A stretch of DNA of 4,208 bases from positions 1 to 4,208 of IMG/VR virus record IMGVR_UViG_2660238600_000003; one strand, given 5' to 3'. Below are positions 1-4,208 of the stretch, one piece after another. The notes under the pieces were generated by a model, which saw nothing but the letters and a program-made list of their open reading frames with translations, did not search any database and was not told where the DNA came from. The DNA comes from a virus (taxonomy: Duplodnaviria > Heunggongvirae > Uroviricota > Caudoviricetes). Numbering within the stretch: position 1 is the stretch's first letter; each line of letters begins with the position of its first letter. Position numbers and translations under genes: made by a program.

Positions 1-24
1 TCAGAGGCAGAAAACGTTGCTTAA
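1..24 (+). CDS. tnpA: Possible 3' end of the Tn3-family transposase gene (last 7 codons plus TAA stop inside the inverted repeat); partial, runs off the left edge.
   Basis: Frame 1 is open from position 1 (tca gag gca gaa aac gtt gct) to a TAA at 22-24 inside the inverted repeat. Tn3 tnpA is known to terminate within its terminal repeat. The fragment is too short to confirm by protein similarity. Confidence 0.35.
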   Translation, partial: SEAENVA

Positions 25-57
25 CGTGAGTTTTCGTTCCACTGAGCGTCAGACCCC
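1..57 (+). mobile_element. Right-hand terminus of a Tn3-family (Tn1/Tn2/Tn3-like) transposon. The 38-bp terminal inverted repeat is at 20-57; the transposon body lies to the left, outside the window.
   Basis: The reverse complement of 20-57 is GGGGTCTGACGCTCAGTGGAACGAAAACTCACGTTAAG, which matches the Tn3 38-bp terminal inverted repeat as I recall it, with the GGGG outer end at 54-57. The sequence changes character immediately after 57. The inner flank (1-19) differs from the bla-side flank found in pBR322-type vectors, so this looks like the tnpA-side end. Confidence 0.8.
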
Positions 58-1136
58 TAGTACCGAAGGGCTTTCGTCTGGGAAGTGAAGAAGCTCTCGC
101 CGGTGAACACGCAGATCATCTTCTGTATATTATCGATGAAGCCTCCGGTGTCAGTGATAGAGCTTTCGGTATCATCACCGGTGCTCTTACCGGACAGGAT
201 AACCGCATCTTATTGCTGTCACAGCCTACACGCCCAAGCGGCTATTTCTACGATACACACCATAAACTGGCCAAGCGTCCTGGTAACCCAGATGGCGTTT
301 ATACGGCGATCACGCTTAACAGTGAGGAATCACCGCTGGTAACGCCAGAATTTATCAAAATGAAGCTGGCGGAGTACGGCGGGCGTGATAACCCTATGTA
401 CATGATTAAGGTACGCGGCCTATTCCCTAAATCACAGGACGGCTTCCTTCTTGGACGTGATGAGGTTGAACGTGCGACGCGGCGGAAAGTCAAGATTGCC
501 AAAGGATGGGGCTGGCTTGCATGTGTGGACGTTGCTGGTGGTACAGGACGGGATAAGTCCGTTATCAATATCATGATGGTGTCCGGCCAGCGAAATAAAC
601 GCCGTGTAATCAACTATCGAATGCTGGAATACACAGACGTTACAGAAACGCAGCTTGCCGCCAAAATTTTCGCAGAATGTAATCCTGAGCGATTCCCAAA
701 TATCACCATAGCGATAGACGGCGATGGGCTGGGTAAAGCAACGGCGGATCTGATGTACGAGTATTATGGTATTACCGTACAGCGTATACGCTGGGGTAAA
801 AAGATGCATAGCCGTGAAGATAAGAGCCTGTACTTTGATAAGCGTGCTTATGCCAACGTTCAAGCCGCAGAGGCCGTAAAATCTGGTCGTATGAGACTGG
901 ATAAAGGTAATGAAACTATTGAGGAAGCGTCGAAAATCCCTGTAGGGATTAACTCCGCAGGTCAATGGAAGGTGATGAGTAAGGAGGATATGAAGAAAAA
1001 ACTCAATCTGCACTCACCAGACCATTGGGATACATATTGTTTCGCTATGCTGGCGGATTATGTTCCCCAGGACGAAGTGCTTAGCGTCGAAGACGAAGCG
1101 CAGGTTGATGAAGCTCTGGCATGGCTTAATGAATGA
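58..1136 (+). pseudogene. pacB: Terminase large subunit (P1 PacB-like), 5'-truncated at the transposon end. Walker B and the C-terminal RNase-H-like nuclease domain are retained; the Walker A region is missing.
   Basis: The frame of the 213..1136 ORF stays open back to the transposon boundary. The upstream in-frame translation reads ...[42 protein letters not shown], with a Walker B-like LLYIIDEAS at 120-146. Downstream motifs [14 protein letters not shown] (Asp codon 528-530), [11 protein letters not shown] and [14 protein letters not shown] are typical of terminase nuclease domains. No Walker A (P-loop) is present anywhere in the frame. The ORF-track start at 213 is a TTG with no convincing ribosome-binding site. 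The pacB symbol is inferred from the P1-like context, not from sequence memory. Confidence 0.7.
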
Positions 1137-1139
1137 ATA

Positions 1140-1156
1140 CTTGCTCTAATAAATTG
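1140..1156 (+). promoter_or_regulatory. C1 repressor operator (Op51-like), probably overlapping the promoter of the c4-icd-ant operon.
   Basis: CTTGCTCTAATAAATTG matches the asymmetric 17-bp P1 C1 operator consensus ATTGCTCTAATAAATTT at 15/17 positions. It lies 4 nt after the terminase stop and upstream of the c4/icd/ant genes. No clean -35/-10 pair could be assigned. Confidence 0.6.
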
Positions 1157-1287
1157 TGTTTTTTAACTGCCGATGTTACATTGAGCCTGACCTCTTGCGC
1201 CTTGAGGCATTTTCGGTTTATGCTTATCAGGCATCTCAGTAAAACGGGTGCCGGGATTGAGACCCCGGATAATGCAAAAGGCGACAC

Positions 1288-1310
1288 AGACGCCAAAAGC
1301 GTCTTTTTTT
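1288..1310 (+). terminator. Rho-independent terminator, plus-strand orientation.
   Basis: AGACGC (1288-1293), loop CAAAA, GCGTCT (1299-1304), then a run of seven T (1304-1310). On the opposite strand no T-tract follows the stem. Confidence 0.55.
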
Positions 1311-1355
1311 GTGTCATGCCATCGCACAGCCATACGTAGCGTTTAGCTCAGAGAT

Positions 1356-1442
1356 CAATGGTAGTGCTGGCTGGGCTGCCGAAAGGCAGGCCGGTTCCCT
1401 TTTGCGCCGGTAGTCTCAACCCAGTCAGTGCTACCGCCATTG
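1356..1442 (+). ncRNA. c4: c4-like antisense regulatory RNA (candidate; ends approximate).
   Basis: Non-coding stretch directly upstream of icd. A 14-bp interrupted closing stem pairs 1356-1369 with 1426-1442, and an internal GNRA-type hairpin lies at 1371-1390 (CTGCC-GAAA-GGCAG core at 1376-1389). Two segments are complementary to the icd translation initiation region: 1398-1405 CCTTTTGC pairs with 1477-1484 GCAAAAGG (Shine-Dalgarno), and 1356-1364 CAATGGTAG pairs with 1488-1496 CTGCCATTG (reaching the GTG start; one G-U). This matches the known P1 c4 a2/b2 versus a'/b' arrangement. Confidence 0.45.
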
Positions 1443-1495
1443 AGATTGAGACCTCACGCGGTAGCTCCTTAAATTAGCAAAAGGAGGCTGCCATT

Positions 1496-1717
1496 GTGGC
1501 TACTATCCCTACCCCTGCTCATCCTGAATTTATCTGGCGCTTTTACTCCTGCCAAAAACGTCACTATCACTTCGTTATTGCACCGACAGAAGATGAGGCA
1601 CGTTCTCAGCTTCCGGATGCTCCCTGTATTTTCTCTGCCCGCTTTTCTACCGATTCGCGCAATTCTCTCAGTTACTGGTGCCTCCCTGTTAACGCTTCTG
1701 CTCAGGAGGGACTATGA
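1496..1717 (+). CDS. icd: Icd-like small protein (73 aa; interference with cell division), first ORF of the immunity-I operon.
   Basis: GTG start at 1496 preceded by AAGGAGG (1481-1487, 8-nt spacer). The stop at 1715-1717 overlaps the ant1 ATG (ATGA). Size and position (between c4 and ant, overlapping ant1) match P1 icd. No protein-level confirmation was possible. Confidence 0.55.
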   Translation: MATIPTPAHPEFIWRFYSCQKRHYHFVIAPTEDEARSQLPDAPCIFSARFSTDSRNSLSYWCLPVNASAQEGL

Positions 1718-2829
1718 GAACGTCATTAGTCACCCGTGAAGAGATGATCGAGGCAATTGAACAGCACACTGCCTGTATCAGTACCAGGGATATACCGGGC
1801 GTTATTGCCAACTACTTCATGATCACCAAACAACTTTACCGGAGAAAGGACAAACACGCGGTTCACCGCATTCTGCTAACCGATATCCGTGAATACCTGC
1901 TCGAACAGGGTCATCTGAATTACGCAACCGTCGCAGCCGAAGCACGCAAGGAGGCACACAGAATGAAAGCTACTAACGTTAAATCAGAAAAAGTTCATGC
2001 ACCTTCAGTTCAGGAATCAGAGCTGGTGGTTGTTCAAAATCAGTCGGATGAAATTCCCGTTCTGGAGTGGCAGGGAGTGCGTGTCGTAACAACCGAAACT
2101 CTTGCTAAGGGGTATGGTACAGAAGCGATTCGCATTCGCCAGAATCATCATGAGAACAAAGTACGCTTTGTTGAAGCGAAGCACTTTTTCAAGGTTATTG
2201 GCGATGAGCTGAAAAATTTGCGGGTAGCTTTAAACTACTCACAAAATCCAGTCTCCCCCAAAGCGCGCTCTCTCATCCTCTGGACAGAACGAGGAGCTGC
2301 CCGTCACGCTAAAATGCTCGAAACCGATCAGGCATGGGCATTCTTTGAAAAACTGGAAGACAGCTACTTCCGACAAAAAGAACAGCAACCGGTCGCAATC
2401 CCCCAGACGCTTCCAGAAGCTCTGCGCCTGGCTGCCGAGTTAGCTGAACAAAAGCAACTTCTGGAACAGAAAGCCCACCAGCTAAATCAGCAGCTGGTGG
2501 CCGCCGCTTCTAAAGTCGATTTTGCCGACCGGGTATCAGTAGCTAAAGGGATCCTGATTGGGAATTTTGCAAAGGTCGTTGGACTTAAACAAAATGCGCT
2601 GTTTGCCTGGTTACGGGAGAACGGCATTCTGATAGCGTCCGGAGGCCGTAAAAATGTACCGTTCCAGCAGTACATCAACGCGGGGTATTTCACGGTGAAA
2701 GAAGTGGTGCTGGATGATGAAGATGGCTACCAGATACGGTTGACGCCTCAATTAACGGGTAAAGGCCAGCAGTGGTTGACGCGTAAACTGCTCGATGCTG
2801 GCTTGTTAAAACCGGTGGCGGCTGAATAA
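1714..2829 (+). CDS. ant1: Antirepressor Ant1 (371 aa), with a C-terminal region typical of phage antirepressors.
   Basis: ATG at 1714 preceded by AGGAGGG (1704-1710). The 371-aa product (about 42 kDa) contains an in-frame internal start giving a 288-aa product (about 32 kDa), matching the P1 Ant1/Ant2 pair. The C-terminal half (DFADRVSVAKGILIGNFAKVVG...FTVKEVVLDDEDGYQIRLTPQLTGKGQQWL) resembles phage antirepressor KilA-C-type domains, judged by eye. Confidence 0.75.
   Translation: MRTSLVTREEMIEAIEQHTACISTRDIPGVIANYFMITKQLYRRKDKHAVHRILLTDIREYLLEQGHLNYATVAAEARKEAHRMKATNVKSEKVHAPSVQESELVVVQNQSDEIPVLEWQGVRVVTTETLAKGYGTEAIRIRQNHHENKVRFVEAKHFFKVIGDELKNLRVALNYSQNPVSPKARSLILWTERGAARHAKMLETDQAWAFFEKLEDSYFRQKEQQPVAIPQTLPEALRLAAELAEQKQLLEQKAHQLNQQLVAAASKVDFADRVSVAKGILIGNFAKVVGLKQNALFAWLRENGILIASGGRKNVPFQQYINAGYFTVKEVVLDDEDGYQIRLTPQLTGKGQQWLTRKLLDAGLLKPVAAE
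1963..2829 (+). CDS. ant2: Antirepressor Ant2 (288 aa), in-frame internal start within ant1.
   Basis: ATG at 1963 with a strong AAGGAGG Shine-Dalgarno at 1948-1954 (8-nt spacer) inside the ant1 frame. P1 is known to make two Ant proteins from nested in-frame starts. Confidence 0.45.
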   Translation: MKATNVKSEKVHAPSVQESELVVVQNQSDEIPVLEWQGVRVVTTETLAKGYGTEAIRIRQNHHENKVRFVEAKHFFKVIGDELKNLRVALNYSQNPVSPKARSLILWTERGAARHAKMLETDQAWAFFEKLEDSYFRQKEQQPVAIPQTLPEALRLAAELAEQKQLLEQKAHQLNQQLVAAASKVDFADRVSVAKGILIGNFAKVVGLKQNALFAWLRENGILIASGGRKNVPFQQYINAGYFTVKEVVLDDEDGYQIRLTPQLTGKGQQWLTRKLLDAGLLKPVAAE

Positions 2830-4033: not shown

Positions 4034-4208
4034 AATTATGCCTCACTGTATTGACAACACAGAGCCTGAAGCTCTGACCTACTGTTTCACCCATGATCCA
4101 TGCTGGGGTAATCTAACAACATTGCGCTGTGTGTAAGATGAGCAATGCATAGGGAAGGTGCGAACAAGTTCCTGATATGAGATCATCATATTCATCCGGA
4201 GCGCATCC

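Follow-up and report, generated by a model that had tools for sequence, protein, structure and literature searches.

A blaTEM-1 transposon splits the terminase gene pacB in a defective family of P1-like plasmids

Introduction

The pacB genes of bacteriophage P1 (PacB, YP_006576.1) and of RCS47 are the same gene as the fragment described here, which is collinear with their codons 137-494. The fragment differs from RCS47 pacB at 12 nt and 2 aa, and from P1 pacB at 186 nt and 31 aa, with the same motifs at the same positions. Unlike the P1 and RCS47 genes, it lacks codons 1-136, which encode the Q-motif and Walker A, its 5' part lies 4,950 bp away and its partner gene, pacA, is frameshifted. The transposon that separates the two parts is also found in phage P7 (annotated as Tn3 in AF503408), where the same element has the same 38-bp repeats and a 5-bp duplication; the P7 transposon was named Tn2, with blaTEM-1b, by Venturini et al. 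2019 (PMC6906374). In P7 the element adjoins ref and packaging is not disabled, whereas here it lies inside pacB.

P1 derivatives that have lost lytic functions (pJIE250-3) or that have been remodelled by insertion sequences (pSvP1 and pTZ20_1P) are documented (PMC6906374). The plasmids considered here resemble pTZ20_1P and RCS47 in having an ant module between pacB and c1 (PMC6906374), but they differ from pJIE250-3, pSvP1 and pTZ20_1P in being far more reduced, with about 35% of the P1 DNA, and in carrying bcs, dms, hsd and autotransporter genes as cargo. We found no mention of the transposon-pacB junction in phage-plasmid literature such as PMC6906374, and the main text of the mBio phage-plasmid paper PMC9600943 contains no discussion of pacB. 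With regard to structure, the best match of modelled PacB is Sf6 gp2 (PDB 4IDH; nuclease domain 5C10), at only about 16-17% sequence identity. The isolated nuclease domain of Sf6 is a designed construct, whereas the pacB remnant is a natural truncation.

Results

The window, that is, the whole stretch of 4,208 nt analysed here, was 100% identical to two plasmids of E. coli from French hens, pF404-1 (NZ_OY754365.1) and NZ_OY754384.1, and 99.8-99.9% identical to four more, from UK poultry-farm E. coli, UK poultry-farm E. fergusonii, a human in Ecuador and a chicken in Laos. The junction was identical in these six complete plasmids (France, UK, Ecuador and Laos), four of which came from a search of 5,426 complete E. 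coli genomes. Across the six, the 4.2-kb window varied by 0 to 10 nt, and none of these differences fell in the pacB remnant. From position 58 onward the sequence matched hundreds of P1-like plasmids as well as phages RCS47, P1 and P7, in which the annotation reads pacB, then (in RCS47 only) ant, then c1 and coi.

The features around the junction are given in Table 1. In pF404-1, lpa and pacA are followed by the first 137 codons of pacB, then by the transposon (bla, tnpR and tnpA; 4,950 bp) and finally by the remnant, towards which tnpA reads. The blaTEM-1 transposon matched the P7 element at 100% identity along its full 4,950 bp and showed all the hallmarks of the Tn3 family, namely 38-bp inverted repeats, a 5-bp duplication and the tnpA, tnpR and bla genes. 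A target duplication of 5 bp is expected of Tn3-family transposition. The upstream fragment encodes PacB residues 1-137 and two further residues, Gly-Val, contributed by the inverted repeat; because of the target duplication, V137 is encoded on either side of the transposon. A first-pass annotation, made from the window alone, had proposed that a transposon truncated the gene, and the comparison with pF404-1 confirmed it, since the half with Walker A lies across the 4,950-bp blaTEM-1 element. We looked upstream for a Walker A joined to the remnant without an intervening transposon; the transposon is there, and the proposal stands. Alignment to intact PacB located the truncation point at codon 137.

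Table 1. Features of the transposon-pacB junction and of the pacB remnant, in window coordinates
Feature	Position	Strand	Remarks
tnpA 3' end (Tn3-family transposase), stop TAA 22-24	1..24	+	RefSeq CDS 76189-79194 of NZ_OY754365.1 ends at window position 24
38-bp terminal inverted repeat of the blaTEM-1 transposon, tnpA end	20..57	.	exact reverse complement of GGGGTCTGACGCTCAGTGGAACGAAAACTCACGTTAAG; other copy at L001 (pF404-1) 7108
Target-site duplication TAGTA, 5 bp	58..62	.	flanks both inverted repeats in L001 (pF404-1); single in p1-H9 pacB
pacB 3' remnant, codons 137-494 (358 aa + stop)	60..1136	+	identical to p1-H9 PacB; PHROG_2; fold matches
Walker B LLYIIDEAS (D162, E163)	120..146	+	strand 157-162 ends in invariant D162-E163
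Coupling (C) motif LLLSQPT (S190-T193)	210..230	+	S190, Q191, P192 and T193 invariant, after strand 185-190; TTG 213 lies inside
Nuclease motif I CVDVAGG (D293), then GRDKS (D301)	522..542	+	D293 ends the first nuclease strand, 287-293; both Asp invariant
Nuclease motif IAIDGDGLG (D356)	708..734	+	aligns with catalytic D296 of Sf6 gp2; invariant
Nuclease motif III HSPDHWD (D457, D460)	1011..1031	+	align with N441 and D444 of Sf6 gp2; invariant

Two of the six plasmids, pLR-46_1 from Ecuador (locus L013, 3313-7057) and pEF7-18-51_1 from Laos (locus L014, 4309-7057), had the transposon later cut by IS26, with loss of bla, the 5' pacB fragment, pacA and lpa; what is left there is the tnpA-end repeat and the remnant. 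Plasmid pF404-1 itself is a 126.5-kb mosaic (loci L006-L008) around roughly 31 kb of P1 DNA. Its cargo includes two RepB-type replicons, a type I R-M system, bcsABC cellulose synthase, a DMSO reductase and an autotransporter, and it also bears two group II introns as well as more than 20 copies or fragments of insertion sequences.

Plasmid p1-H9 encodes an intact PacB of 494 aa, to whose residues 137-494 the remnant corresponded with 100% identity and 0 nt differences. The remnant contains the C-terminal half of the ATPase domain (Walker B, coupling motif and lid) and the whole RNase H-like nuclease domain. Searches of Pfam and NCBIfam with intact PacB and with the fragment gave no match, so the family identity was taken from PHROGs, a fold search and PDB alignments. 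PHROG_2 (terminase large subunit) matched the remnant with an E value of 4e-28 and the intact protein with 3e-40, and a match to PHROG_5902 had an E value of 6e-90. An AlphaFold model was made on an intact homologue (P0002, 94% identical) with a 44-sequence alignment and reached a mean pLDDT of 89.4. The best PDB match of this model in Foldseek was Sf6 gp2 (1e-22), accompanied by the large terminases of T4 (gp17), D6E and HK97, as well as by terminase structures consisting of the ATPase only or the nuclease only. The two-domain fold, with an N-terminal ASCE ATPase and a C-terminal RNase H-like nuclease, was present in P0002, and the remnant has a partial ATPase domain. The model puts the breakpoint within a beta-strand of the ATPase core (135-140), so that the remnant starts in the middle of a domain and not at a domain boundary.

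In the 44-sequence PacB family alignment, K444 was invariant together with the Asp, Glu and coupling-motif residues marked in Table 1 (D162, E163, S190-T193, D293, D301, D356, D457 and D460). Walker A (S56-S63) was invariant too, except for T60, which was nearly so. The P-loop GHGTGKS, residues 57-63, sits in the 5' pacB fragment across the transposon, and the remnant contained no [AGS]x4GK[ST] pattern nor any GK[ST], in agreement with the first reading of the fragment as one without Walker A. Sequence and profile alignments placed PacB K444, D457, D460 and D356 opposite Sf6 gp2 K428, N441, D444 and D296, which are metal-binding residues of the nuclease (PMC4678813). The matches from the PDB sequence search, run with the single sequence and then with a profile, were marginal (E 0.007-0.15) and limited to the C-terminal motif, and hhalign against Sf6 gp2 gave a probability of 69%, with D301 opposite Sf6 D244 in a low-confidence stretch. 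As for the first catalytic Asp, D293 is tentatively indicated by the motif pattern and by strand 287-293 of the prediction, and D301 by hhalign; both lie within the remnant, and the terminase conclusion is therefore unaffected by which of them it is. The motifs that had been called from the letters were indeed those of a terminase, since all four were present and the catalytic residues aligned with those of Sf6 gp2. That the fragment is a remnant of the P1 PacB terminase was likewise upheld, by the identity to p1-H9, by about 90% DNA identity to P1 pacB and by PHROG_2.

The reading frame of the remnant was uninterrupted over its 358 sense codons and stop, as had been claimed, and the other two frames contained 15 and 39 stops over the same interval. 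The frame opens already at position 30, with a TGA at 27-29 just upstream, and the codons in 30-59 belong to the transposon inverted repeat and not to the terminase. TTG 213 and ATG 360 had been taken as the sole in-frame starts; they are in fact the first two of 17 in-frame ATG, GTG or TTG codons, and further ones located 5' of the nuclease domain are ATG 396 and ATG 402. The poor ribosome-binding sites attributed to these starts were, on the other hand, evident. The predicted anti-Shine-Dalgarno pairing was -4.1 kcal/mol at TTG 213, +0.2 at ATG 360 and -5.5 at ATG 396, compared with -10.8 to -12.1 kcal/mol for the neighbouring icd-like, ant and c1 genes, and it was weak at all in-frame starts from which the nuclease domain would be preserved. 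The native pacB start, which overlaps the pacA stop as TAATG, has a weak Shine-Dalgarno too (-5.7). A CDS starting at TTG 213 and covering 213-1136 is annotated in RefSeq (WP_247146752.1) as 'hypothetical protein'. ORFs on the opposite strand or in other frames (432-1013, 299-613 and 85-342) had no PHROG or Pfam match and were dismissed.

Plasmid p1-H9 (NZ_CP029181.1) has an uninterrupted pacB and showed 0 differences over 4,151 bp of the window, which supports a recent insertion and bears out the recent truncation suggested in the first-pass annotation. The dN/dS of the remnant was 0.057 against RCS47 and 0.061 against P1, and the existing divergence therefore arose during the time in which the gene was functional. 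Judging from these comparisons, the open frame is most probably inherited from a working gene under purifying selection and has not been maintained since. As no substitutions have occurred after the insertion, selection on the fragment itself is neither shown nor excluded.

The partner gene pacA had a 14-bp deletion relative to RCS47, which causes a frameshift and leaves pieces of 264 and 123 codons. This deletion is common to pF404-1 (locus L001, 5518-6697), with the transposon, and p1-H9 (locus L002, 2416-3595), without it, and the RefSeq label of the gene is 'terminase, frameshifted'. In a tblastn survey of 89 P1 proteins, in which a gene was considered as kept if at least 90% of it was covered, 31 of the 89 were kept in pF404-1 and 28 in p1-H9; 35.5% of the P1 nucleotides were represented in pF404-1. 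In both plasmids this survey found none of prt, pro, lyz, lydA, lydB, lydC, sit, tub and bplA, nor the tail-fibre genes S, R and U, nor gp5, gp6, gp7, gp24, gp25, gp26, repL, ban and dmt. Among these, we take prt to be the portal gene, sit and tub to be tail genes and repL to be the lytic replicon. The P1 genes c1, coi, cre, phd, doc and lpa were present with 97-100% protein identity to P1, c1 and coi being inside the window. Plasmid pF404-1 still encodes P1 gp23 and gp22, presumably the major head and sheath proteins.

Neither pF404-1 nor p1-H9 carried the Punavirus gene set of complete morphogenesis, lysis and lytic replication. An intact PacA in a packaging-competent phage was not found either, as pacA is frameshifted and prt and 50 or more P1 genes are absent. 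The two plasmids were collinear with more than 99% identity, and a UK plasmid with the junction had the same mosaic backbone and the same bcs, dms, hsd and autotransporter cargo; the argument for a defective host rests on the junction-bearing plasmids, three of which were examined in full or nearly so. Since p1-H9 shares all of the losses and lacks the transposon, the P1 part was no longer a phage before the transposon landed, and the frameshifted pacA together with the missing portal, tail, lysis and lytic-replication genes implies that packaging was already impossible before the insertion. This overturned the implication, drawn from the window alone, that a working terminase had been freshly knocked out, because pacA was already frameshifted and about two-thirds of the P1 genes were missing.

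Downstream of the remnant, an immI-type module lies between pacB and c1 (window 1140-2829). It comprises a C1-operator-like site, CTTGCTCTAATAAATTG, at 1140-1156, an icd-like gene (1496-1717) and the ant gene (1714-2829), with ANT and ORF6N domains. Two RNAs in it scored above the Rfam gathering threshold, an isrK-like Hfq-binding sRNA (1231-1309; 56 bits) and a C4 antisense RNA (1354-1441; 75 bits). The RefSeq CDS of an 'ash family protein' at 1358-1477 overlies the C4 antisense RNA and is probably a spurious protein call. In P1 itself c1 follows pacB after 24 bp, and the host plasmid has neither simB nor simC, the P1 immI neighbours. The match to P1 and P7 ends at 4152, in the imcA region, and positions 4153-4208 are the left end of ISKpn26 (IS5 family), which RCS47 has at the same place. 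With the ISKpn26 end on one side and the transposon end on the other, the 4.1-kb P1 segment is bracketed by mobile elements on both sides.

Discussion

The primary sequence comparison, the gene survey and the structural model together are best explained, with a probability of about 0.9, by the insertional split of a gene that had already become useless, with a silent pseudogene fragment as the result. The starting element was a defective, IS-ridden plasmid of the P1/RCS47 type, with pacA frameshifted and the portal, tail, lysis and lytic-replication genes gone. A 4,950-bp blaTEM-1 transposon of the Tn3 family then inserted after codon 137 of pacB, duplicating TAGTA. It left the Q-motif and the Walker A P-loop with the N-terminal 137 residues and cut these off from the remainder of the protein, where Walker B, the coupling motif, the lid and the nuclease domain are found. 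The insertion therefore cost no working function and, ampicillin resistance aside, was neutral. The frame is still open, as the insertion happened very recently and was preceded by long purifying selection. We infer that the fragment is neither expressed nor functional; most likely it is untranslated or barely translated, and without a role. Against a silent fragment, no terminator-like site was predicted from the tnpA stop to position 1041. As tnpA reads towards the remnant, read-through transcripts are possible, and weak pairing alone does not exclude translation, given that the native pacB start is also weak.

It seems improbable, despite several points in its favour, that the fragment is expressed by tnpA read-through or from an internal start (TTG 213 or ATG 360) as a free nuclease that is toxic, is regulatory or blocks the packaging of incoming P1-like phages. 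Its frame and all its nuclease motifs are intact, its orientation is that of tnpA with no predicted terminator in between, RefSeq calls a CDS in it, and it is unchanged in six plasmids, even where IS26 removed the 5' half. This retention is, however, uninformative, because the whole window hardly varies among the plasmids. Moreover, the starts located 5' of the nuclease domain had pairing energies of +0.2 to -5.5 kcal/mol, against about -11 for the neighbours, translation from TTG 213 would yield a product that starts within the ATPase core and lacks the first strands of that core, and promoter-like matches were near chance (5 found, 2.2 expected), so that no promoter is claimed. The toxic or regulatory nuclease-only product that had been suggested at first therefore fared poorly, in view of the weak ribosome-binding sites, the lack of a convincing promoter and the lack of variation with which selection could be tested. 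We consider it very unlikely that a C-terminal PacB fragment (lid and nuclease) is made at a low level and poisons the terminase of a superinfecting P1-like phage or triggers a defence that senses terminases, such as Avs; if this were true, a gene fragment made by a transposon would be an accidental anti-phage or toxicity factor on a resistance plasmid.

The insertion might instead have killed an otherwise functional P1-like phage, with the other losses coming later, as could be suspected from the close relative RCS47, in which both pacA and pacB are intact and ISKpn26 and dms are likewise neighbours, and from the absence of decay in the remnant. But the site in p1-H9 is uninterrupted, with a single TAGTA, and this plasmid has the pacA frameshift in common with pF404-1, is built on the same mosaic backbone in collinear order and likewise lacks about 58 P1 genes. 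Tn3-family elements very rarely excise precisely, and p1-H9 thus most likely represents the state before the insertion. A phage-inactivating role of the insertion, which retains very little probability, was accordingly rejected after the whole-plasmid comparison. That the junction is an assembly artefact or a chimera and pacB is really intact is hardly credible: we found no point in support of it, the junction is identical in six independently assembled complete plasmids, and a matching 5-bp target duplication is present at the other end of the transposon.

The insertional split of pacB is an ordinary case of a known process, the remodelling of P1-like phage-plasmids by transposons and insertion sequences, in sequences that are public and annotated. 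It has little weight as a discovery, although it is a clean and datable illustration of how a phage-plasmid turns, by decay, into a plain resistance plasmid. The junction, with TAGTA at codon 137, can serve as a lineage marker for a family of blaTEM-1 plasmids in Escherichia of poultry and humans in France, the UK, Ecuador and Laos. In resistance surveillance, such plasmids should be left out of any count of transducing P1-like phages, and the RefSeq 'hypothetical protein' of the 3' fragment is in fact a pacB pseudogene fragment.

Further lesions of pacA and pacB, independent of this one, were observed among public sequences of other P1-like elements. A 1.42-kb deletion runs from early pacA to about codon 95 of pacB (locus L021, 3868-5209, in a contig of Logan ERR2203423), and its product, P0001, has 402 aa and 212 member sequences. 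A separate lesion gave a PacA-PacB fusion of 557 aa (P0004). The loss of packaging genes seems to be recurrent in P1-like elements.
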